Shown here one piece after another: positions 31,901-52,700 of a DNA stretch of 64,000 nt. The DNA comes from Perna viridis. Lineage: Eukaryota. Location: positions 24,855,840 through 24,919,839 of the forward strand of contig CM074525.1 of assembly GCA_037379345.1 (NCBI GenBank), in the 5' to 3' direction. The notes beneath the pieces were generated by a model. The model saw nothing but the letters and a program-made list of their open reading frames with translations, was not told the origin of the DNA and did no database searches. The position numbers and the translations under genes are program-made. The stretch's first letter is position 1, and every line of letters starts with the position of its first letter.

Positions 31901-34900
31901 CCTGACTCAATATAAAAATTAACATGTATATATAATGACTGGTGCTATTAGCTGTAGAAAAATAATTAATTGAAGTTAGCAATTCCAACAAAAATAAATC
32001 TTGCTGAGAAAAAATCTTCAATCTTGGCAGTAAGTGAAGAGAAAAAAAGTTCCTTAGTTTGGCAGTAATTTGAAGGTTATTGATGGTATAATTTAAACTT
32101 TACATTTATGTGTAATATGCCAGGAATGTAGCACCTTGTGTCAAGGGAAAATGATTATTTAATGTCAGATTAGTGATGAGGTACTATACTATAAAATCCT
32201 GATTATGGCAAGGTTGGAAAGTCAGGTTGAACTCCCACCAGGTTCAGCTATAAAATCCTTATTATGGCAAGGTTGGAAAGTCAGGCTGAACTCCCACCAG
32301 GTTCAACTATAAAATCATTATTATGGCAAGGTTGGAAAGTCAGGCTGAACTCCCACTAGGTTCAACTATAAAGTCCTTTTTATGGCGAGGTTTGAAAGTC
32401 AGGTTGAATTCCCACCTGGGGTAACTATAAAATCCTCATTATTGTGAGGTTGGAAAGTCAGGTTGAAATCCCACCAGAGTTCATTAAAAAAATCCTGATT
32501 TTTTTTTTTTTTTTTAAGCATGGAAAGTTAGTATAGCTCCCTCTAGGGGCGAAAACTTAGTTGCTGGGTAATGTACATGTATAATTTTCATTCATAGTTT
32601 CAATCTGTGGTTATTATGAATGCTAGATTTCCATCACTTTTCAAGTGTTATGTATGATTTTTGACTTGTCAGTTTGTGGATTTTTATACATGTTTCAAAC
32701 AGATTTCAGATATCCCTTACGTTATAAGGGGTCAAAGGGGCCAGACCTAAAAAAAAAAATCCACTTTTTACTTATTGGTCCAATTTTGAAAATGTTTCAA
32801 TTAAATTTCAAATTTGATGCTTTATTGTGTCCATATTGAACTGCTCATTATATAAAGTGTGTCAAAAACTAATATTGTGTCCACACTTGCCCCACCTGTT
32901 CAGGTTTCAACCACTGGGGTTGTATAATGCTGCTCTCCATGAAGCTCTTTGTCCAGTAATATCAATGCTAATGACAATTTGAACATGCTAGTGTTGAGTT
33001 GGTTTTTGAATACATGTTACTTTTATCAGTTGCAAATAGTTTCACCCCACAGCACTGAACATTTGACAGAATTTCCGGGTTTAATCCTTCATTTTGATTT
33101 TTCTCCCTCATGGAAAGTAGAATGACAGTTTATAACATTTGTCCCATAATCCTGTTTAGTGGAGGTGATTTATTTGATAATAATCTTTACTTACAGGGCC
33201 AGTACCCATCACAACATGAAAGTATGATCAACTCCGGTCTTCCTCCTATGTCATCCTTCCGTGGTGGTCAACCAACCACATCAGCGTATTCCAGTACTTC
33301 ACCATCGGTTGTAAACGGGTCTGATATGATCCGGAACCCTGCCAGTTCTCAGACAGGAGATGCCTTAGGGAAAGCATTAGCATCTGTAAGTTAGTAGTAT
33401 GTAAGGAAGAACAAAAGGAGCCATAAATTTTAAATTTAGGAAAAGCATTCTGTATTTCAATTTTGTTTTCACTTATCATTCTACTAATTATGTATACCAA
33501 GGTTCAAGATACTGATCTGGCCACAAACCTTGGAACAGTTTTAATAAAGAAAATATGGATATCTTATTAGTAAAGATAAGTTAGTACAATATGGTTTTGG
33601 TCTGGTTAAAAAAGTAGGGGCACTAAGCCCTTTATATGGTGTTCAGATATTAACTATGTTGCGCAAAACAAAAATGATTTACAACAGTAATATGTATATA
33701 GATAAAAAAGTTGTATGGTTTGTAGTTCAGTGTAGTGATGCATTAATGGTGTCATAATAATGTGTACTGTGAATGCACTTATATTCATGGATACCAATTT
33801 TCATGGATTAGGGAAGAAACACAGGTTTGCAGATTCTTGAATTTATGGTCTCGAGGTTTTCAGTATACACTTCGATGAAAATCTTCTTAAAGTTGGAGAC
33901 TTATTTCATGGTTAGGTCTACCCATGAAAAGTGGTACCCCATGTACAATAGCACTTTCACAGTAATAACAATTGTTAGAAATGGTTATATTTTGCATATA
34001 CATTTTCATCTGGAAAACTATGTCCACACCAGAGAAAAAACTTAATCTTTTCAATTGTAATGGACTATGAAATATCAAATATTTCTACTAAATATGAATT
34101 TGTTTAATAAGTGTGTACACCATTCCTTTTGCCAGAAATGACCAAAAAGTTCAATATTTATAGAATTTCTATAGTTTGAATTCACAAATAAGACTATCAA
34201 AGCTTGATGATCAATTTTCAGCCGTATTTTGGGCCAAGTACAGCTTAATATTTCCCTATACCTTTTTCAATTAAAACTTAAAATGATACAAATGTATTAA
34301 GTTTGAAATCAGAACTTTTTTATCAGCCCTTATTCTTCTTGTAATTTCAGATATATTCACCTACAGATCATACAAATAGTAATTATGGTTCAAATAATTC
34401 TACACCTGTGTCTTCACCGCCTCCATTAGCAGGTAAGCTTATTCTGTCATCACTGTCTCTGTTCGCAGGTTAGCTTAATTCTAAACCTGCGTCTCACTAC
34501 CTCCGTTAGCAGGTAAGCTTAATTCTATACCTGTGTCTCACTGCCTCCATTAGCAGATAAGCCTAATATTGCATGTGTGAAATTGGATAAATCCTGTGAC
34601 TCTTGAGTCATATTGATAGATTCTGTTTATCAAATAATTGTCCATTATTACATCAATGTCTTGAGTTGAGATTTTGCCAATATTTACAATGACTTTAATC
34701 ATAATGGGGAATTCATAGTCTGAGAATGTGTATCCATTGACATGTAAGTAAATAGTGTTATCTATCATCAGGATCCTCCTAGTAATGATAGAGACCTACC
34801 AAAGTTTTACCTGACCTCATTTCTATCAATTTTCAGGTTCCTCCGGCCAATGGCAGAGACCTGCTACACAAAGTTCTACCTCACCACATTTCGAAGGAGG

Positions 34901-36302
34901 AACATTACATAACTTAGTAAGTAATCTGAGGAAATGAGGAAGAGTGAGCGTCAAGTGTCTGTGAATTTGAAATTTCAAACTTCTTTGTTTAAATATGAGA
35001 ATTTGGAGAACGGTTAATTTGCCAAATAAATGTAATCAAAGCAGTTAAATTCTTTAAAGTATTAAGAATATGGATTGTATCTGTGATATTGGGGCATATT
35101 GCCAATTTGTCTGTTTTCCCCAAGGACCTTTGACCTAAAATAATGCACTGAGCATGTTTGTAAAATGTGGATATTGTTTAACTGGTAAAAGTAGTTGTTC
35201 TTTCCCTGAGTAAGACAGATGTAAGTCTCATTATCTTTCAGATTAGGCCAAATAAAATTAATTAATAGGTTTTCATCTGCTTCGGCCCCTAAAAAATGAC
35301 AAAAATATTTTAAAGAATTGGGGCAGGAATTTCAAAATCTGGTCTTTTTGCATCAGTTTCAAGTATTGAGATACTATAATATACTTTATTTTCCATTTCT
35401 TGGTGACTAAAATAATGTATCTTCTCTGAAATGGATGTTGCTGTGGATTTAGAACATATATAAGTACTTCAAATAACTAAAATTAAGTTAGCAAATATGT
35501 CTATTACAGTAAGAAATGAAAAATAATCTGTTCCATATTTTCTGTGAAGGATGAAAATCTACCATTTAAGTTTACTTGACCTAAATGTAAAAGTTAAAAT
35601 GAACTTAAATGCCATCTTGATCACCATTTGGTTATTGGTTTGAAAGGTCAAAAGTTCGGCCAGAAAAACTTGTTAACAGATAACTTTTTTCAAAATAACT
35701 CGTAGTTGTTATATATTCATTAACTATAGCCTGTTAAAAGTTAGGAGCATCAGTCCCTTACTACATAGATGGTATCTTGATATTCCCTCTAAGCTTACAT
35801 AGAAATTTTGTTCAGAGAAAAAACAACTATTTTTGGTGCATGTGTACTAACACTTCTGTTGGTTTACCCAGCAGAGAGGAATGGAAGAGAGGCTGGATGA
35901 CGCGATTCACGTTCTCCGTGATCACGTAGAAATGGAGGTAAAAATTTCCCAGGGTTCCCTGGTTACAGCTTTATGTTAGCTTATTATTGCGAGGGAGGCG
36001 GTTATGTTGTTTTTGTTCTCAATATTATAGGTTTACTTTGAGAAGCTGTTGATGATCAATCACAAATCAGTCAAGCCTGAATTTCTTCTGCTTTGTAAAA
36101 TTTCATTCTTAAATTTTTTTATTTTATTTTTTTTTTTTATTTATACACTTTTGGTAATTGACCTCTGACCTCCATTACGGCTGTATAAGTGGTTATTTAT
36201 GCATTCATAAAATTTTGACCATATCTACAATAGACCTACAGATATAAAAGTAAAAACACTTCAATAATGCCCTCCCTTCAAATTAGGAGTTATTCCCCTT
36301 TA

Positions 36303-36342
<40 letters not shown>

Positions 36343-39300
36343 TTGATTCAGGTAATGTGAAAATGACATTACATCACATGAAATTAAAATAATACATTTT
36401 TACAATGAAAAACTTTAAATTTTCCAGCAGCCAATTAAAAAACCACTTACATGTTATAAATGTACCATAATCTGTCATATATTTTAGAACTTGAAACCTG
36501 TATTTGTTTTATTATTTGAGTGTATACCTAGAGAGGTGAAAATTTTTTCTGAAGAACTTTGTCATTATATTATTTCAATGAAAACAAAAAAAAAATTACT
36601 TGAAGAAAATTTCTACAAGATCTTGTTATCTTCATATGGTTCCAAATTTAATGTGTTTTTGACATGCATGAATCACCTCTTGTCTAATTTTTTTTCCCAG
36701 ATTGTTTCAAGAAAGTTTTTTGTCCTATCGTCATTTTTTTACCCTCCTCTGAATTTTTTTCTCCACTGAGGATAGTCTGAACTTTTTTCACAGTTGTAAT
36801 GTGTTACATTTTATGAGAGCATGTTGAAGTTTTGGGTTTTTAGATGTATCAATCTTGTTGCATGTTGTTCTATATTTATCATTATAGCTTTGCATGTGCT
36901 TATTATTGATATACTGACCAACACTGGAAATCATAAGACTAAGGACTGTAGACAATTTCTACTAGACATGGAAAGTATGCTATTTACATGTATACTGGGA
37001 TTGTAGGCCATTTCTATTTGACACTTTAGTTTCAACTTGTGGGCAGAATCTTGATCAGTAATTCCATATTGTAAATATAGCACTTTTCTGTAAAGATTGT
37101 ATCCACATTTTACAGAAAAATTGTCACATTTTCTTGTGGAAGTACCTACTTAAGCATGCTCAGAAATGACAATGCAAATGTTTCTTTAAAAAAAAAAGTG
37201 TTTTCTTTATAAATTATTGATAATTCATTTCTGTGCTATATGTTGACTTAGAATGTGTTGGTCAGTGTATCATGTTCATACACCTCTCAATAAGTACCAA
37301 GCAAAAGTCATCTCTTTATATACCTCTGAATAAAAACCTATTAAAAGTCATCAATGTCCTCTTTTTAAAACCTTTCAATAAGTACCAATCAGAAGTCATC
37401 TCTTTATATACCTCTCAATAAAATCCAAACAAAAGTCATCATTGTCCTCTTTATTTACCGCTCAATAAAAACCAATCAAAAGTCATCAGTGTCCTCTTTT
37501 TATACCTCTCAGTAAGTACCAATCAAAAATCATCTCTTTATATACCTCTCAATAAAATCCAATCAAAAGTCATCAGTGTCATCTATATACCTCTTAATAA
37601 ATACCAATCAAAAGTTATCAGTGTCCTCTTTATACCTTTCAGTATGTACCAATCAGAAGTCATCAATATCCTCTTTATATACCTCTTAATAAGTATGCAT
37701 TGAAAGTCATCAAACTTCCTCTTAATATACCTCTCAATAAGTACCAATCGAAAGTCCTCAATGTCCTCTTTATACCTCTCAATAAGTACCAATCAAAAGT
37801 CATCAATGTCCTCTTTATATACCTCTCAATAAAAACCAATCAAAAGTCATCAATGTCATCTTTTTATACCTCTCAGTAAGTACCAATCAAAAATCATCTC
37901 TTTATATATCTCTCAATAAAAACCAATCAAAAGTCATCTATGTACTCTTTATATACCTCTTAAAATGTACTAATCAGAAGTCGTCAATATCCTCTTTATA
38001 TACCTCTCAATAAGTACGCATTGAAAGTCATCAAATGTCCTCTTCATATACCTCTCAATAAGTACAAATTGAAAGTCATCAATGTCCTCTTTATACCTCT
38101 CAATAAAAACCAATCAAAAGTCATCAATATCCTCTTTATATACCTTTCAATAAGTACCAATCAGAAGTCATTAATGTCCTCTGTATTATTTCTCAACAGG
38201 TAACAATGAGTGTCATTTGTACGAATCAAAAGTCTTCAGTGTTCTGTTACATATAGTTATAAGGTGAATACTTCCATTTAGATATATTCCTTTTGGAAGG
38301 TATCATATCTAAAGACATCTGTGATAAAGAACCCACAGACTGTTATCACTTCGTCTATGCAATACATATATGTGTTATAAAGAACCCACAGACTGTTACC
38401 CCCTTGTCTATACAGTACATATATGTGCTTCATTTCACTGTCAATTTCTTAGTACACTGCGTCAACATCATAAAATATTAAAGGAATGATTTTATTTTTC
38501 AGAGTCGAATGGAAGAAAGACTTGACGATGCAATATACGTTCTACGTCATCACGCAGAACCCCAACAGATGGGTCCCGGAGGAATGATGCCACATTCCAA
38601 TGGAATCATGGGATACGGTGGTGGCATGTCTAACACCATAGAGGCCTTGGTAAGAATGATCTGTTGTCATGGACACCATATATATGCTTCACTATTGACA
38701 TGTAAAATGGCTTTGGTAAGAACAATCTGTTGTCATGATATGCTTCACTATTGACATGTAAAATGGCCTTGGTAAGAACGATCTACTGTCATGGACACTA
38801 TATATATGCTTCACTGTTGACATGTAAAATGGCCTTGGTGATAAGATCTGTTGTCATGGACACCATATATATATGCTTCACTATTGACATGTAAAATGGC
38901 CTTGGTAAGAACGATCTGTTGTCATGGACACCATATATATGCTTCACTATTGACATGTAAATTGGCCTTGGTAAGAACAATCTGTTGTCATGGACACCAT
39001 ATATATGCTTCACTATTGACATGTAAAATGGCCTTGGTAAGAACAATCTACTGTCATTGACACCATATATATGCTTCAGTGTTGACATGTAAAATGGCCT
39101 TGGTGATAACTATCTGTTGTCATGGACACCTTATATATGCTTCAGTATTGACATGTAAAATGGCCCTGGTTAGAACAACCTGTAGTCATGGAAACCATAT
39201 ATATGCTTCACTATTGACATGTAAAATGGCCTTTGTTAGAACAATCTGTTGTCATGGACACCTTATATGTGCTTCACTATTGACATGTAAAATGGCCTTG

Positions 39301-42300
39301 GTAAGAACGATCTACTGTCATGGACACCATATATATGCTTCACTATTGACATGTAAAATAATCATTTTTTGTCTTGTTAATCTTTACAGGATTCATAATT
39401 GTGGCTTTCTTGAGATTTTGAATATAAGAAGCTGAGTTGTTTTTGCTACAAATAAAAGATCTGAAGTTTAGTTTGAATCAAACTCTGAATAATAAATAAG
39501 TGAAGCCACATTTACTGTTAAAAGGTGTAAAAGATCAAATATACCAATAAAGCATGGCAAAGGGAGGCCTTCATCAAGGGTCAGGGGTTCAAATTTTTGT
39601 TCAAAAAGTGAGTCCTGGACATTGACAAGTTTCACATCAAAGGTCTGCTTTAGGAAAACCGAAAGTCCACAAAAAGTGTTAGGGTCAAAGGTCAAGGAAC
39701 CATGTAAATGAAATTTGAAAGGATAGAAATTGAGGGTCCCAAACCTCTGACAACCACTAATTTGAACCCCTGGGATGAATAGCGCTGGCCAATAGGACAC
39801 TAAATTCTCATGAATGTATCATCTTAAAGACTTCTTAATTTTCTACCATAGTTGGACATGGACCATTACTTTAGACTGTGCACTAAGAAATGGTTGACCA
39901 AAGCTTTTTTTTTTTCATATGGACTGTGGCTAACACTATCTTCTCTGTTGAAGTAATGGCAGTTAACTAAATATATTTACCCATAAATCTTTAATGAGAA
40001 ACAATAAAACTCTATATCAAAAATATTTTGCAGGTGCACAGACGGGAAGACATTAATCTTGTGATAATTTGTTTTATCTGTTTAAGTCATTCCATTAATT
40101 TATTTCAATCTTGATGAAATAACAGACCATTTGTACACGTGTTTAGTGAGCATGTTTAGGACATTACAATCATTTATGATGTAATGAGGAAAAAATATTT
40201 TTACAACAGGGGGAAAGAGTAATCAAAAAGTAGTTAGCAGTTTGTTGATGGCAGAATCAATGTTGTCTGTTTTTGTGAAAGCTGAAGAATCTGTTGGAAA
40301 CATTAGCTGTGAGGCGACTGCTAAATTGTTCATGCAGAACTCAGTGTTTTCCAAGCTTTATAATAGCTCTGACATCTGGCAATGTAGTTTCCTTCCTTCA
40401 TATGGGAGAGCACACATGGTATATATGTTGACTACCTCCTGAGAGGAGAGCTCTTGTCTTGTTGTGATGTAATCAATGTGATTTGAAGGTTTTTACAGAC
40501 TTATAATACAGATAACACAACTCAACTGATTTAAACAGATAAAATTTTGACAGTTAAGATATTTGTCTATCTTATTAGTAGAGGGCATTTTCTACTTTGA
40601 AGCAAGGTGTCCGTTACATGGTTGTACTGGGAAATGATTCAGTCCTATTGATGCCAAAATAAACATGTTATTTCATTACTAATCTATATGATGTAATATT
40701 TCTCTGCCTAAGGTTTCCTACTTTAAAATTTGTCAGTTCTATTTTTAGTTGTTATGTTTTTTATTGGTATCACACTGTCAATGTAATTTCTATATTAGTT
40801 CGTAGATCTTTATGAAATTTTATAACAAGATTACAAATCACATCAGTATTAATATTTCAGGTTTCGACTGGAGTTACCACCTCTGTTCTGGTCAAATTTT
40901 TATCCTGTGTCAAAAATCTAATCGTAATCAAAATTCAAAGCTGTTTAAGAATTATTGGCCAAAAAGGGACCTAAAGCAAACATTTCATAGTATTTAACTC
41001 CAGCAAAAGCATTGGAATATCTTTGATATTCTATACCACTATGGTCAGACTTGGATTGATGTTGATGGTTAAAACTTTTCAGAAATTACGGGCCAGAAAC
41101 ATATATTTTCCTGATGTCACTATTAGTGAATGAATCTGTTTGAAATTGTAGTACGAGGTGCCATACCACACAAGAAAGATTCAGATTAATTTTAAGGATT
41201 TCGAGTTGAACTTTGTAGGAATTACCTTATCTTCCTTTAATAACATGAGTAGGAATGAATGGATGCACACTATAAAAGGATTTTCGTGTTGTGACTTGAG
41301 CCGAGTAAGAATATGGGGTAAGAAACAAGCACTTTTTTCTGATTTCTGGAGAATGACTTGAGTGAAATGGAATAGATCTCTTTGAAATTGTACCACAAGG
41401 TGCCATGTCCCCACAAGAAGTTTAGGATTGACTTGCTGGGTTTTGACTGGAACCATTAAGGAATATTAAGGCCCAAAAAGTGACCACTTTGTTTTGGGTC
41501 AAGTTTGAATGGTGTGTCCATACTTACCCATCTGTTCAGGGTTCAACCTCAGCAGTCATATCAAGCTGTGCCCAGCGAAGCATTTTCTTGTGTAAGCTTC
41601 CTGAAGAATCTCTAAAAAGCCTCATAGTTGGATTAAATGACAGTATTTATCAACAAATGGGTGGTATATTATAATCACATGGTCTGTCTGTCATTCCATT
41701 CATCCATCCAAATTACAATTAATTTAGCTCCAAACTGAATGATTAATTTCAAATTTAGTATGCAGATGTATTAAGACAGGGCAGAAGTCATAAGAGATTT
41801 ATTTTTTGTGCTGACCAATGTCAGCTGTACAAGTGGTGGTATACCTAGTTCAACAATGCTTACAATATCATGATTATTTTCTAGTAATGACCAGAAAGTT
41901 TTAGTCCTTGAATTTCAACTCTTGACCTGGCATTACATCAGGATTATAAAATACATGTACTTATTTGATAATTTTTTTTATTTTTTTGCAGGCATCTCAT
42001 CAGCACAGTTCTTCCGAGGGTAGGCCCAATGCTAATGAACAAGGAAAACCAGATAGTAAGTAGAGTGAAAAAGAAATTATAAGGTTAAGGGTCAGAACAA
42101 TGCTTATAAGCAGCAGGTCATGAAAAGAGTTCAATTCTTTCAAGTTTTGACCTGTGTTAAAATATGAAAAACGCTTTTGTTGTAATTATAGTATGTGACA
42201 ATAAAGGTCAAAGATCACTTAAAATGTTATTGGTTCAGCAAAACACCAGATGCATGATCAATATTATCTTGATAGTATTTTATTCCAGATGGTTAGTGCA

Positions 42301-45300
42301 GTTATTTTTATACCCCCACAAACAAAGTTTTTGGAGTATATAGGTTTGACTTTGTCTGTCTGTCCACAGCAATTTTCTAATCAGCTTGATGCATTGTTAT
42401 TAAACTATGTTGGATGGAAAATAACCACATGGAGATGTGTATACTGTCATGAATATATAAGTTTTTGCAAAAATTGAAGAAATGACGACTCGTGGACATA
42501 GGCATTTATTTCAACAAACTTGGTCTCGTGTGTTGTAGGCAACTCCTCCTCATGGAATTGCGGGATTGTTATAAAACTTGATTGGAGTATTAAATTACCA
42601 TATTGACACATGCCTGTTGTCAAGAATTTATGTTTAGGCAAAAATTGTAGAAATGTTGGCTGATGGACTTAAGTGTTTTTCAGCAAATCTTGGTCTGATG
42701 TGTTGTCCACAGCTCCTCCTCAACGACTTGTAGGATTGTTATGAAACTCGACAAAGTTTTAGTTTACCATATTGTGGTGTACTTGTTGTCAGTGATATAT
42801 GTTTACAGTAAATTTGCAGTCATATTCTGTTGTGTTAAAAAAAAAGTACTAATTGCAGTTTGGAGTTGGGTGTTTTAGAATGGCATAAGTGTTAGAATGG
42901 CACCAATGTTGTGTGTCAGAAGTGCTTAGTCTATCTTTCATGAATATTAAATCCAATATGAATCATGTGTCCACATTGTTTCCAAATGTACAGGGTTCAA
43001 CAAGCTGCGGTGGTATTAGTGAGGTTAGGGGCAGTGTCTAGTTTTTTGGGAAATACTGTTTACCTTCTCCCATCACTTATGTTACAAATTATAAATAGAG
43101 TTTTAGCAGTTGTGATTATAACACTGATATGAGAAAGACACTATGTTTAATGCCAGCAAAAAATTTTTACACGTCTGTATGTCGGTGTTTGTTAAGAGCG
43201 TTTCCATTTTTGTTCTAGACATACATATAATATAATATTAAAGGTATTGTTAGAAAATGTAAAAGACAGGGAAAAAATTACGCTTTGACCTACCCACGAA
43301 AACCACGAAAATTGGTACCCCCATGAACAATAATACTTGCACAGTATTACTATAATTGTAATTGTAACAATATTTCAATCATTTTTATAATACATTCCGT
43401 TCTTGGTAATTTCAGTTCACACATTAGAACAAAGTCAGTCAACCCAACAGAAGAATTCAGACAAATCAGAGAAAAAAGACAGCAAAAAGGACTCAGAAAC
43501 TGCTTCAGTCAAACCCCCTCCTACTAAAAGATCTCGGTAAGTAGGACTCAGAAACTGTTTCAGTCTAACCCCTTCCTACTGAAAGGTCTCGGTAAGTAGG
43601 ACTTCAGAACAGCTTCAGTCCACCCCTCCTTCAAAAAGATCTTGGTAAGTAGGACTCAAACTGTTTCAGTCTAACCTCTTCCTCCTAAAAGATCTCAGTA
43701 AGTCGGACTTCGGAACAGCTTCAGTCTAACCCCCTCGTATAAAAAGAACTCGGTAAGTAGGACTCAGGAACAGGTTCAGTCCACCCCTCGTATTAAAAGA
43801 TCTCACTTGGTAGGACTCAGGAACAGCTTCAGTCCACCCCCTCCTACAAAAATGTCTTAGTAGGACTGATGAACAGCTTCAATCTAACCCCCTCCTGCAA
43901 ATAGATCTTGGTAAGTAGGACTCAGGAACAGCTTGTATGTGTCATTATGAGATATGTTTAACAATTACAATGTCAATCTGTTAAACAGTGATAGAAGTAA
44001 TTCTATCTGATGTAATGTAGAAATACGTGGAAGTGTTATAGTTCGTGGAGTATCAGTTTTCATGGTTTTTGGTTTACCATGAAATCTGGTTCAGAACAAA
44101 ATAGAACTTTCCCATTGAATCGTATGTTAGAAATGTCAAATCATCAAAATTAAATAATCTATGAACTTATGTTTTATTTCCTATACCACGAAAATAGGTA
44201 CTTACAATTAAAAGTACTTCTACGGTAGTCCTGACTGTCTAGTATGTTTGAATGTTAAGGAATCAATGAAGTTGTGTTCAATAAGTAATCAATGATACAT
44301 GTATGATATGCTGTATGATTTATAATTGACAGGTGGACGTCTAAAGAAAAACAGCAGCCAGGAACAGGACCTTCTTCACCCTCATCGTAAGTTTCTTCTA
44401 CAGGTCAAAGTTGGCTTCATGCATCAATTTAGTGAAAGTGTATTAAAATTTTAATTATCATCTCTGAAACACACTTATCAACAATTAAAAGAAAAACACA
44501 TTAAAATTGTATATGTGACTTTGCTGTTGATCTTAAATTATGATGTTAGACACCAATTTATAAAAGGTATATTGATATATTAGTTGGAAGCTTTAGATCT
44601 ACACAAAAACTCTTTGATAAGCAGTGGTATGTCCATGTGGAGATTAAGAGTTGTTCCCCTTTACTAGTTTCCATAGGGTAGAATCAATACACTGAAGCTA
44701 TCATTTGACTGTGAAAACAGTATCAAAATCCCACTTTTTATTTCTAAGGTCAAAGGTCATTTATTTGTCTTCTGTATATTTACTTCCTAATTGATCAAGT
44801 CGATTTTTGGTGGATATTTTTTGGTTCCTAGACTACCCATAGTCTCTCTTGTGGTTGCCTAATTACAAATTTTTATTTACATTAATTAAAAGGATCCAGT
44901 CTGCCATAATTTTATAAGCAGTTCTCTCATCACCTTCTGAGGGGTGTGAAAGAATAGCTCACCAACTTACAAGTGTTTCATGAAAAGTTGGCATGAGAAT
45001 TAAATAGTTACCTTTGATTGTTCTTACATTACTATTGATTATTTGATTGAGTTAATGAATCTTTGTTTTTTTTTATTGTCAGTCTCTGTAAGGATCAGGC
45101 AGTGGGTTCAAACGGAAAAAATACCACTATTTTGCAAGTTTAATTCAGCTATTTGGACCATCAAAATCAAGAGAGAAAAAAACGAGATTTTTCCATTAAA
45201 GTTGTAATTTATCGGAATGCACTGAAAATTAACATTTCAAGGACAGATAAATCTGTCTAAACATCATTTTTCTAACATTCTATCGACATTCTATTTAAAA

Positions 45301-46758: not shown

Positions 46759-49700
46759 AACTTAACCTGATCTCTCTGTCAAAAAGTTCACCTGCTCTCT
46801 CTCTCTCTCTCTTTCTCAAAAACTTAACCTGATATCTCTGTCAGAAAATTCACCTGCTCTCTCTGTCAGAAACTTAACCTGATCTCTCTCTCTCGAAAAC
46901 TTAACCTGATCTCTCTCTCTCAAAAACTTAACCTGCTCTTTCTCTCTCAAAAACTTAACCTGCTCTCTCTCTCTCTCTCAAAAACTTAACCTGCTCTCTC
47001 TGTCAGAAACAAGTGCATGCCCTTTGATTTAAGAACCATAAAGAAAATATTTGAATTACATGTAACAAAGCTTATTAATTAGGTAAACACATGAAATCTA
47101 AAATATTATGAAAGCTTTGTGAGGGATGGTTTTCATTCTGTACCCTAGGATTATAATCAATTAAAAAAAACCAGCTATTTAGACATCTCCTTCTTTGAAT
47201 AAATCCATGTTTTGACTTCAACATATTATATCACATTGTTTTATAAAGCCCTTGTTTATTTGTCTGCACAATTAGTCCATTGTTATTTGGTTCGTGTACA
47301 TTTTATATGAGGCTATTGTTAATTGATCATACTTGTAATAATGCAAAACTTTCATGATGCGAAATGAGATGTCAAAATGTTTTAAAAATCAAAAGTTTGG
47401 AATAAGACCAAGGCTTGTGACACATGGTCGTTGTATTTTATTTCAACAGTCAGATTGACGACCCTGATGAGTCTCCGGAAACTAAGTTAGAGAGAGAACG
47501 CGTTAGGCGACAAGCCAACAATACACGAGAAAGGTTTGTCTATATTTCCCTTGGATTTTGTGCCCATCTATGTAGATTTAATCTGAAAGTCAGCCAGGTA
47601 TCAGTTTCTCCCAAGGTATGGATGTTAGTAAATCACCATCATCATTTCTTGTCTTTAAAAGGTATAAAGAAGCCTTACCATCAACAAGCAAGGTTAATTT
47701 TATTTGTTTGTGAAAATCAGAATTTTCAATATTTTTCACATGAAATTAACGATTTTCATGTGAAATTCACTAAACATTAATTTCATGTGAACATTTCGTG
47801 TGAATTTCACATGAACTCTATCACTTAGTTTACTTGCTCAATTTAGGTGAAAATCATGTGAAATTCATGTGAAAATCATTTCAAATAATTCTGCCAGTGT
47901 ATAAAGTTATTGTTTTGATGATTATCTTTTGTTGTTTATACTAAAATCAGTTTCACTAAAACACAAAGAAGACTTGGAATAATATCAGATTTAACAGTAC
48001 ATTGACTATTCTACAGATCAGAATTCTGTGCATGAAGACAAGGTATTTGGCCTACATTCAGATTAGAACTACATTCTGTGTTATGAAACCTATCCACTCC
48101 CATTCAATGATTATTACCAATTATCTAGAGTTTTGGCTATTGAATACCACACTTAATATGTTTTAGACAGTTTTAAATTGATTAATAAAATTGTTACTTT
48201 TAAAGGGCAACATATTTTTCTTCAATTCAAATCTAGTTCAGCCCTTACCAACACCATTGTCTTCTTTAAATAAACTTGTGCAGCCATTGTGGTAGTGAAG
48301 ATAACTGGTTTATTTTTGGAGTAATCTGAATGAGAGTGATCAGGTGTATAGTTTTGTTGGTTTTGGGATATTCATGTTGTCAGCACTCAGTTCTGGTCTG
48401 TCTGTTTCATTGGCAGTAATGACCTCGCCGATGAAGACGAGTCTCCGGAGACCAAGCTGGAACGTGAGAGATTACGGCGACAAGCTAATAATGCTCGGGA
48501 AAGGTTTGTCTTGATTCTCTGGGTGACGTATTGCAGGGTTATTGCACAAATATTTGGAAACACTGTGCCAAGTAGGGTGTATTATTGCACAACCTTTAAG
48601 AAGCATTATACATCTTACAAGGCATAATATTCCTAAATATTTATGCAATAAGCCTTTTATTGTATAGCAATCAATCATTGTTTGATTCATTATTTCCTTA
48701 TGATTACATTTTTGCAAGTTATATTTGCATTTGTGTAATTAATTCATTTATAACACTTTTGTAAAAGATAACTATCTGTGAGAAATGATATATTGCTATT
48801 CAATAAACCAGTATATTCAAGCTGTCTTCCTCTGGTCACTGTAGTATATAATTATCTATATTAATTCAGGAAGTAATGCCACAGTTTTATTGTTGCATGA
48901 ACTTGAACATATTATTTGCAATAAACCATTTTTGGAAGTTTTGTTATAAATTTCTCAGTGCCTCATCTAACAACGACAAATGAAATGGTCCTGTTTCAAA
49001 AAAATGCAGTAATAATTGTGTGCAATATTTTCTGAATTTACAGTTTACAAGTATTTGAATTATAATGCCCTGCCAACAATATTCAGGTATATATATATAT
49101 ATCAATGTGTCTGTCTATCTGTGCATCAGTTCCAATAGTAATGTTAGTACATGTGTTTTAGCTTAGTTTAACTGGCAATCTTTACTAGCTCAAAACATAG
49201 AATTTTTATTCATAAAAATAGGATGAGTTGGTTAAAAAAAACGCCACACTTTTTCTGGCTGTGAAATGATGTGCAGGGCATTAGAACTGTATCATATTGA
49301 TTTGTTTGATAACGTGTCATCATAATACAGTAATTACATTGTCAAGTGTTATACTTTAAAAATGAATGTTTTCAGGGAGTATGTAAACCATCAAGTATCT
49401 AAGTCCTACAGTCCCTGGAACTATCCATGCGACTTTTACAGTCCCTGAAACTATCCATGCAACTTTTACTGCCCCTGAAACTATCCACACATTATTACAG
49501 TCCCTGAAACTATCCATGCAATTTTTACAGTCCCTGAAATTATCCATGCAACTTTCTGATGCATTGATGATCCATGATTGAATGATTGCTGACAGTTGTC
49601 CAGTGACCAATCTGATCACAGTTTTGTTGAGTAAAATGACAGATGATCAGTTCATGTAAATCTAAGAATTTTCATTGTAAAAATCTAAATTATTAAATCT

Positions 49701-52700
49701 AAAATGCAAGATAAAAATAATTCAATTGATGTCTAATTGTATATCACTTAGAAAATATACGTAAAAATGGAAAACCAAAAAACAATCCTTAAATTGTATT
49801 TACCGATCAGCAGTATCGTGATGGAACAAAGAAGTGATCACTGATGAAATGAATTGATGACTGATCAGAAACTGATTGATAATCGATGACGAATTACAAT
49901 TATAGTTGTATGGATCGGTTCAGATACTGTATATGTTTGTATGGACTAAACAAACAAAAATGTTATGAAGAAAAATTTACATTGAAATAAGATAGTTATA
50001 ACAAGATACATGTGTGTAAATATGGGTACAGTATCAATTGATCTTGTGAAATAAAATTTTACATACATTTGATTGTTTCTACAATTTAGTCAAGTATGTT
50101 TTAATTAAGAAATTTTCCTTTCATTCTGTTATACCAAATATTTGATAGATCTATTAAATTGATGACTTAAAAATAAATAGATGTGACAATTTCATTAGGT
50201 CTATTGTTTCTAATAAAAAAACAGAAGGCATATCAATTTGACATTTTTTTGTGAAAATAGAAAAGTTAAATCACTTGTCAAAATAAGCTACTTTGCAGTT
50301 TCTGGTTCTATCTTTTTTTTTTTATATTTGATACTGAGAAGTATTCTATTGATGATAGAAATTATGAAATAGTTATTTATTTACAGAATAAGAGTTAGAG
50401 ATATCAATGAAGCCTTTAAAGAATTAGGGAGTATGGTCTCATTACACTCAGGAAACAGTCAGCCACTGACAAAACTAATGGTCTTACAGCAGGCTGTAAA
50501 TGTGATAACATCACTAGAACAACAAGTCAGGGGTTAGTAACTTTTTAAAATAATGTTTTTACAGCAGGGGTAAAATGTGATTATATCACTAGAACATCAG
50601 GTCAGGGGTTAGTAACTTACTAAAATGATGGTTTAACAACAGGGGTAAAATGTGATTATATCACTAGAATAACAGGTCAGTGGTTAGTAACTTACTAAAA
50701 TGATGGTTTAACAACAGGGGTAAAATGTGATTATATCACTAGAACATCAGGTCAGTGGTTAGTAACTTACTAAAATGATGGTTTAACAACAGGGTGTAAA
50801 ATGTGATTATATCACTAGAACATCAGGTCAGGGGTTAGTAACTTACTAAAATGATGGTTTTACAGCAGGGGTAAAATGTGATTATATCACTAGAACATCA
50901 GGTCAGGGGTTAGTAACTTACTAAAATGATGGTTTTACAGCAGAGTGTAAAATGTGATTATATCACTAGAACATCATGTCAGGGGTTAGTAACTTACTAA
51001 AATGATGGTTTTACAGCAGGGGTAAAATGTGATTATATCACTAGAATAACAGGTCAGGGGTTAGTAACTTACTAAAATGATGGTTTTACAGCAGGGGTAA
51101 AATGTGATTATATCACTAGAATAACAGGTCAGGGGTTAGTAACTTACTAAAATGATGGTTTTACAGCAGGGTGTAAAATGTGATTATATCACTAGAACAT
51201 CAGGTCAGTGGTTAGTAACTTACTAAAATAATGGTTTTACAGCAGGGTGTAAAATGTGATTATATCACTAGAACATCAGGTCAGTGGTTAGTAACTTACT
51301 AAAATGATGGTTTTACAGCAGGGTGTAAAATGTGATTATATCACTAGAACATCAGGTCAGGGGTTAGTAACTTACTAAAATGATGGTTTTACAGCAGGGG
51401 TAAAATGTGATTATATCACTAGAACAACAGGTCAGGGGTTAGTAACTTACTAAAATGATGGTTTTACAGCAGGGTGTAAAATGTGATTATATCACTAGAA
51501 CATCAGGTCAGTGGTTAGTAACTTTTTAAAATGATGGTTTTACAGCAGGGGTAAAATGTGATTATATCACTAGAACATCAGGTCATTGGTTAGTAACTTA
51601 CTAAAATGATGGTTTTACAGCAGGGGTAAAATGTGATTATATCACTAGAACATCAGGTCAGTGGTTAGTAACTTACTAAAATGATGGTTTTACAGCAGGG
51701 GTAAAATGTGATTATATCACTAGAACATCAGGTCAGTGGTTAGTAACTTACTAAAATAATGGTTTTACAGCAGGGGTAAAATGTGATTATATCACTAGAA
51801 TAACAGGTCAGGGGTTAGTAACTTACTAAAATGATGGTTTTACAGCAGGGTGTAAAATGTGATTATATCACTAGAACATCAGGTCAGTGGTTAGTAACTT
51901 ACTAAAATGATGGTTTTACAGCAGGGTGTAAAATGTGATTATATCACTAGAACATCAGGTCAGTGGTTAGTAACTTACTAAAATGATGGTTTAACAACAG
52001 GGGTAAAATGTGATTATATCACTAGAACAAGTTAGGGGTTAGTAACTTACTAAAATGATGATGTTACAGGAGGTAAAATGTGATTATATCACTAGAACAT
52101 CAGGTCAGTGGTTAGTAACTTACTAAAATGATGGTTTAACAACAGGGGTAAAATGTGATAATATCACTAGAATAACAGGTCAGGGGTTAGTAACTTACTA
52201 AAATAATGGTTTTACAGCAGGGTGTAAAATGTGATTATATCACTAGAACAAGTTAGGGGTTAGTAACTTACTAAAATGATGATGTTACAGGAGGTAAAAT
52301 GTGATTATATCACTAGAACAAGTTTGGGGTTGAGAATATCCAGTTACCATGGTTTGAATTTACCGGTCGGCAGAATAGGGTTCAATAAAGATCCAACCAT
52401 ATCAACTAATGTTACTAAAAGGACGACATACTAAGAACACATTATACAAGAACCATAACTCTTGTCTTTCTCATCAATTTCTACAAAAATTGCCTACCAT
52501 TTCTTTTTCTCATGCATTTCCTAAAGGCCGTTTTCGAAACAACCTCATATGAAGGCTTTTTTTAAAAATATAAGTAGGATATTCCATTTTACTGCATTTT
52601 CTTGTTACTGATGTTTGAGAAGGGAGATAACTGCTAGAAACATAGGACATGCAGTGTATAACACAGAGACTGACTTGAAAGTTTTAAAAAATTATTGGTC

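Follow-up and report, generated by a model that had tools for sequence, protein, structure and literature searches.

According to the available text of PMC4066744, the AD2-1 helix of E2A (residues 397-404) binds the KIX domain at 17 uM through L397, A400, I401 and L404, occupies the same KIX cleft as AD1, and loses 5- to 6-fold in affinity when L397, I401 or L404 is changed. TCF12 (HEB) has an optional exon of 72 bp, exon 15 (PMC5852603, in the part available), which is included in HEB-beta (REB-beta in the rat) and lies directly before the AD2 exon. In the accessible parts of the sources, exon 15 is under the control of PTBP1 and QKI, goes with the neuronal or the mesenchymal state of glioma, with myogenic differentiation and with T-cell acute lymphoblastic leukaemia (PMC5852603, PMC12699894, PMC13231128), and is still termed ankyrin-like in papers of 2012, 2018, 2025 and 2026 (PMC3346973 and the same three). 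Here we analyse a 64,000-nucleotide (nt) stretch of DNA of the mussel Perna viridis (the window, whose positions are used throughout), the + strand of which carries a bHLH (basic helix-loop-helix) gene of class I, or E-protein gene, of mytilid-like type. In this gene a small cassette exon, K, stands upstream of the constitutive AD2 exon, L, and the two encode similar helices. The E2A/TCF3 and TCF4 records that we saw have one copy of the helix, versus two in the K-including mussel isoform. Tandem exon duplication inside an E-protein gene is also known from the mutually exclusive bHLH exons E12/E47 of TCF3, which appear in a human tandem-duplication catalogue (PMC8373072); that pair swaps one domain for another, whereas K adds a copy. 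The explanation that we favour as a whole, with moderate confidence, is that K would be an optional copy of AD2-1 that originated in the bilaterian stem, persists in worn-down form as TCF12 exon 15, and provides a second docking helix.

Exon K, its splicing and its distribution

A sequence-only reading of the window had described K as a 66-nt exon of phase 0-0 with a TACTAAC branch point and a CAGCAG acceptor, and this is confirmed at 35872-35937; the splice sites are canonical (AG/GT, acceptor CAG/CAG) and the frame is kept. K had also been placed directly before L, and it is indeed the next exon upstream, but an intron of 2,565 nt lies between them. The claim that the two are similar in protein and diverged at synonymous sites stands: 13 of the 16 core residues of the AD2 helix in L are repeated in K, and of the 16 core codons 5 are identical, 8 differ synonymously and 3 by replacement (37 of 48 nt shared). 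No similarity between the introns flanking K and L was found by blastn. The 8 synonymous against 3 replacement codons, together with the dissimilar flanks, argue that the copy is old and under purifying selection. Within the K core, LDDAIHVL, the pattern L-x-x-A-I-x-x-L is conserved and phi-x-x-phi-phi plus Leu at +7 is satisfied, and K and L both keep all four residues of E2A AD2-1 whose change lowers KIX binding or which are modelled to make KIX contact (as far as the source is available). Mussel K matches isoform X1 of Mytilus edulis at 21 of 22 residues; exon L shares 81% identity with M. galloprovincialis TCF4/12 and 100% with another record, which differs in other exons.

Two raw RNA runs (X8, X9) and two contig sets (X2, X3) were mapped onto positions 33150-36290, a stretch outside which exon L lies. 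These sets bear the species label of the best-matching data sets, about one fifth to one quarter of each raw run was read, and X3, from a different study, carries a guessed RNA label. The H-I joint is covered by 11 and 12 raw reads (X8 and X9, respectively) and the I-J joint by 18 reads in X8, 17 in X9 and one X3 contig. The J-K joint (34916>35872, GT..AG) is present in one X9 read and one X3 contig, and in no read of X8. In this 120-nt contig 30 letters belong to J, the complete K of 66 nt fills letters 31-96 exactly, and 24 further letters depart from the window sequence exactly at the K donor (35937); its depth is 4.2, versus 6.73 for the X3 contig that spans H, I and J. X2 shows only an unspliced piece, with 5 other letters. 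K is thus spliced into RNA in this species, after exon J. Its inclusion is rare in two samples and apparently frequent in another set; the single J-K read against 35 I-J reads in the raw runs weighs against the favoured explanation, and the K-skipped form of this species is only implied by the same ratio. Intronic dispersed repeats at 33783-33966 and about 35250-35670, probably transposon fragments, attract numerous partial reads that belong to other parts of the transcriptome.

The distribution of K was assessed as counts of annotated protein records informative at its position, not of genomes, so that absences are provisional. An insert is found there in 1 of 6 Mytilus records (0 of 13 further mytilid records), 13 of 15 from Crassostrea virginica and 9 of 11 from Pomacea, in the annelids Dimorphilus (3/5) and Owenia (3/5, diverged), in the spider Stegodyphus (8/9) and in the acorn worm Saccoglossus, a hemichordate (8/11). 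Ptychodera has a degenerate insert of 26 residues with a decayed motif (9/15), and lamprey (9/10) and hagfish (5/7) have the TCF12 exon 15 type. Single K-bearing records come from other molluscs and an annelid (Ostrea, Magallana, Pinctada, Haliotis, Bulinus, Lamellibrachia) and from arthropods (three more spiders, Tachypleus, Strigamia, Medioppia, Anabrus, Darwinula); a chiton has only an unrelated 7-residue extension at this place. Both included and skipped isoforms occur in Mytilus, Crassostrea, Pomacea, Dimorphilus, Stegodyphus and Saccoglossus, and M. edulis X1 joins K to L. With the J-K joint in RNA, this bears out the proposal that K is optional: K is a tandem copy of the AD2-1 helix, spliced after J here and ahead of L in relatives.

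Saccoglossus K has the acidic residue typical of K (see below) and resembles the K of Pomacea and Lamellibrachia, which argues for one origin before the protostome-deuterostome split; K very probably originated once across protostomes and hemichordates. Since it occurs in molluscs, annelids, arthropods and Saccoglossus and is absent from cnidarian, amphioxus and echinoderm records, K is likely to be ancestral to Bilateria and to have been lost often. Among annotated cnidarian proteins, 0 of 40 have K. The sequence-only reading had tied homology with the TCF12 insert to lineages in between, and these give a divided answer, positive in Saccoglossus and negative, to the detriment of a bilaterian origin, in the annotated proteins of amphioxus (0/7) and echinoderms (0/28), as also of Glandiceps (0/13) and Priapulus (0/4). 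In several lineages separately (Littorina, Nucella, Babylonia, Lineus, Tubulanus and Ptychodera), the helix motif has decayed while the K position still carries an insert. Annotated invertebrate isoforms called transcription factor 12/4-like (such as M. edulis XP_071139690.1 and Saccoglossus NP_001161673.1) contain the exon as an isoform difference with no domain name on it, Pfam giving HLH only. K is already present, unnamed, in RefSeq and GenBank isoforms.

A predicted second docking helix and the possible control of its inclusion

The K-including isoform is predicted to gain a second helix for co-activator docking. Because two copies could not share one KIX cleft, a gain would likely come from rebinding avidity or from a second surface (TAZ2, another CBP molecule, or ETO). 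We lean slightly towards a model in which inclusion tunes p300/CBP recruitment in one of these two ways. Two reports on vertebrates weigh against the favoured explanation. In the rat, the insert is reported to reduce E-box binding as well as the formation of homo- and heterodimers (Klein 1993, as cited in the available part of PMC13231128). In the accessible text of PMC12034182, human TCF12 lacking exon 16 (69 residues deleted), in which the numbering implies that exon 15 is kept, is inactive, with reporter activity at control level, so that the vertebrate exon 15 copy does not replace L.

These two observations favour an alternative in which the second helix is a damper, with K packing against either L or the partner subunit and thereby masking AD2 or hindering bHLH dimer formation, as is reported for rat REB-beta. 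In the same direction, when glioma cells were forced to include TCF12 exon 15, 253 genes went down and 70 went up (PMC12699894, in the part available), and in the window the K helix stands 21 residues, or three heptads, ahead of the L helix, as it does in M. edulis. However, of 28 K windows (protein segments defined below) 23 have a spacing of 20, 22 or 23, and in the rest it ranges from 18 to 35, which suggests that no fixed helical or coiled-coil register is kept. The residues at KIX-contact positions are also nearly unchanged in mollusc, annelid and hemichordate K, and HEB-beta supports MyoD activity in myogenesis, according to what is available of PMC5852603. We consider the damper rather unlikely. 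In vertebrates the copy may have changed, in the course of its decay, from a booster into a damper.

Unlike H, I, J and L, K has a donor with no G at +5; K is a cassette with a weak donor, even though its branch point fits the consensus. TACTAAC occurs three times on the + strand of the window, with a chance of about 0.001 per given 25-nt segment, and among 12 acceptors tested only that of K has ACTAAY. With the ACTAAY and the upstream half-site listed in Table 1, the intron before K fits the QKI-repressed type of ACUAAY branch point, and its TACTAAC may be a Quaking repressor site. The bipartite Quaking/HOW site is defined in PMC13004596, in the available text of which QKI competes with SF1 at ACUAA branch points and represses inclusion, and TCF12 is not mentioned; QKI depletion raises inclusion of human TCF12 exon 15 (PMC13231128, accessible part). 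One might picture an SF1-versus-QKI switch at TACTAAC and the upstream YAAY, and it is possible, although we do not favour it, that skipping of K is set by the weak donor together with a STAR protein (QKI/HOW) competing with SF1. On the negative side, YAAY is a common word and adds little to the case for QKI control. The tandem acceptor has a parallel at L, where other mussels, Pomacea and hagfish can add or drop one Gln; in this window L has a single in-frame acceptor (38497-38505). The CAGCAG of K is possibly the ancestral acceptor, copied along with the exon.

TCF12 exon 15 compared with K

The TCF12 insert comprises residues 397-420 in mammalian records, and human exon 16 extends from Gln421 to Met489 and ends at c.1467 (PMC12034182, in the part available). 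With the 72 bp of exon 15, this places exons 15 and 16 in phase 0-0, like K and L, so that the earlier proposal that K sits at the position of the TCF12 insert is upheld for both position and intron phase. Exon 15 is, like K, optional and frame-keeping, and the two have in common the core L-x-D-A-x-x-x-L-(K/R)-D and a terminal E. Its range extends from hagfish and lamprey to mammals, and a single sequence is shared by 112 of 137 matched records. Whereas mussel K is a nearly intact copy of the helix, exon 15 is degenerate and four residues longer at its front, with L, A, M and L at the KIX positions.

For a quantitative comparison, 505 proteins with an L core were used, 330 of them of invertebrate type; 82 of these 330 had an upstream match of at least 12 bits, which yielded 28 unique K windows, picked without reference to vertebrates. 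The weaker inserts of Owenia, Lineus, Tubulanus, Littorina, Babylonia, Nucella, Strigamia, Tachypleus and Ptychodera were excluded from this K profile. Exon 15 of jawed vertebrates scores 14.5 bits on the K profile, 3.0 on that of invertebrate L and -5.6 on that of vertebrate L, and is the best non-L window on the K profile. None of 500 shuffles reached the K-profile score of exon 15 for rat, lungfish, zebrafish or hagfish, and 3 of 500 did for lamprey, under a null that is somewhat liberal (a TCF4 control that lacks the insert reached 9/500). In hhalign, exon 15 matches K with an E value of 2e-4, L with 0.014, vertebrate L with 0.14 and an AD1 control with 0.49, and hmmsearch gives the same ranking with the AD1 control last; the profile similarity for which the sequence-only reading had called is thus found. 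An acidic residue (D/E) two places past the last Leu marks 26 of the 28 unique K windows and 3 of 4 exon 15 variants, and none of 57 invertebrate or 18 vertebrate-type L segments. The best tree found groups K with exon 15. A tree of 60 rows and 20 columns is mostly unresolved, and its starred fork of exon 15 with Pomacea K was not relied on, as a long branch is involved. At the site where L has His/Asn-Val, pancrustacean-type K windows (P0320, P0346, P0352, P0388 and others) have Gly-Phe/Ile and exon 15 has Ser/Cys-Phe, and exon 15 scores best on this subset of K (17.9 versus 6.0 bits); the likeness may reflect shared ancestry or convergence.

No ankyrin family matched at E<=10 with K, with the 24-residue insert alone or with the rat, lungfish, hagfish and lamprey proteins, in searches where the HMMER filters drop most weak matches, and none of 23 PDB matches was an ankyrin chain. 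An ankyrin repeat is a two-helix repeat of 33 residues that occurs in arrays, unlike the insert, a single segment of 22-28 residues. A Pfam KNOX2 match to the 24-residue insert has E 0.012, which does not pass the cut-off, and was taken for a hit to helices in general. From these comparisons we conclude with high confidence that exon 15 should be seen as an AD2 duplicate and not as ankyrin; its orthology to K is probable. K would have arisen once in the bilaterian stem and likely survives, in degenerate form, as TCF12 exon 15.

Several results weigh against this ancestry. On an L-only profile exon 15 scores -2.1, which 41-47 of 300 shuffles reach for jawed vertebrates and which is not significant, and its preference for K over L loses significance once the wider K profile is controlled for (L copies diverged at the same sites, p 0.08-0.70). 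Its absolute K score remains significant under this divergence null for the common jawed-vertebrate form (p 0.0001-0.04). The approximately unbiased test does not reject a grouping of exon 15 with vertebrate L (p-AU 0.158, 20 columns), and exon 15 has four extra residues where vertebrate L has three and invertebrate K none. The p-AU, the extra residues and the non-significant preference for K over L also speak for a rival in which K, although real and ancient, was lost in chordates and exon 15 arose separately, in the same place, by duplication or conversion of exon 16 in the vertebrate stem. That no K is present in all 7 amphioxus records, that the extra helical turn is common to exon 15 and vertebrate L and missing from invertebrate K and L, and that the gene duplicates exons readily (see the basic-region copies below) are in keeping with such an event. 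Yet exon 15 scores far worse on vertebrate L than on K, the tree constrained to join exon 15 with vertebrate L lies about 9.5 log-likelihood units below that with K and exon 15 together, exon 15 carries the K-type acidic residue, and Saccoglossus shows that deuterostomes inherited K, loss being common. We hold a separate vertebrate origin to be rather unlikely. The suggestion of the sequence-only reading, that the TCF12 insert is a diverged homolog of K and not an ankyrin remnant, thus stands on the ankyrin side and in the match to the K profile, and is qualified by this rival for descent.

K is a real and conserved cassette exon, and for a vertebrate exon that has long been mislabelled the comparison gives a different reading with good support, orthology being probable. 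If exon 15 descends from K, an exon linked to disease would be an ancient second activation helix, and a rare cassette exon would be traceable across Bilateria, with frequent loss and decay. Seen as a degenerate AD2-1 copy, exon 15 has named residues (those at the KIX positions) and candidate partners (KIX, TAZ2 and the NHR1 domain of ETO), and the intact invertebrate copies are natural positive controls for it. One might tentatively speculate further, although we hold this doubtful, that the protostome-deuterostome ancestor tuned a single E protein by a one-helix/two-helix AD2 switch, that TCF12 exon 15, which has had the ankyrin-like label since 1993, is the same exon, and that Quaking-type repression through UACUAAC is equally old. 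In Klein (1993) the insert is reportedly presented as lengthening a leucine heptad repeat, which may partly anticipate the AD2-copy point. In a literature search largely outside the subscription journals, no paper treating exon 15 or K as an AD2 duplicate was found. The main text of the ASPRING preprint has no mention of TCF, the supplement of the catalogue in PMC8373072, which covers substitutions only, has no TCF12 row, the available part of PMC9741552 contains no occurrence of TCF12, and those of PMC6433000 and PMC8283981 add nothing on exon 15.

Other duplications and repeats in the gene

The sequence-only reading had also considered that K and L might be used mutually exclusively (J-K-M or J-L-M), both being of phase 0-0. 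No K-only isoform was found among 471 proteins with the core and the basic region, the sole flagged candidate (P0381) having L downstream. As K is always followed by L, the pair would be additive; with K joined to L in M. edulis X1, with further conserved sequence in L (147 nt) and with an intron of the above length between the two, mutual exclusion appears highly improbable. That K might be a recent non-functional by-product of tandem-repeat growth at exon edges, as arrays seeded on exon ends at 34450, 38643, 43488 and 50478 and low inclusion in X8 and X9 could suggest, is refuted by its splicing and conservation (the mostly synonymous divergence from L with dissimilar flanks, the near identity in M. 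edulis and orthologues from oyster to acorn worm). The features of the region around K and L are listed in Table 1.

Table 1. Positions in the window of exons and splicing signals around K and L
Feature	Position	Strand	Remarks
Exon H	33197-33385	+	constitutive context; RNA denominator
Exon I	34351-34432	+	constitutive context; RNA denominator
Exon J	34837-34916	+	constitutive, upstream of K; phase 1-0; corresponds to the exon preceding TCF12 exon 15
YAAY half-site	35824-35827	+	18 nt upstream of TACTAAC
TACTAAC branch point	35845-35851	+	27 nt ahead of exon K; ACTAAY part 35846-35851
CAGCAG tandem acceptor of K	35869-35874	+	first AG used in both observed joints (exon start 35872)
Exon K	35872-35937	+	cassette of phase 0-0; 66 nt, open over 22 codons; second AD2-1 helix copy
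Weak 5' splice site of K	35938-35943	+	GAG/gtaaaa, no +5 G
Exon L	38503-38649	+	147 nt, 49 aa, phase 0-0; constitutive AD2 exon; counterpart of TCF12 exon 16

Exon 3' ends have seeded tandem arrays that contain copies of the donor site, at 34450-34567 (44 bp x 2.7), 38643-39359 (66 bp x 11), 43488-43934 (55 bp x 8) and 50478-52320 (75 bp x 24.6); in the last of these the end of HLH helix 2 recurs, together with stops. Such arrays are a local route to exon-edge duplication. The exon for the basic region of the bHLH domain is itself tandemly duplicated, at 47450-47533 (84 nt) and 48417-48503 (87 nt), with the same phase, AG/GT sites at both and 56 of 84 nt alike; the pair is E12/E47-like but limited to the DNA-contacting half. 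Copy A reads NNTRER and copy B the canonical NNARER, and the A type (NNT/NNC) is used by all 19 mytilid proteins listed with a basic region. Chiton isoforms include two basic-region exons in tandem. Oyster isoforms (P0008, P0052-P0065) alternate DINDAF and DINEAF and a Pinctada model (P0012) has two HLH segments in a row, which suggests duplicated HLH exons in both.

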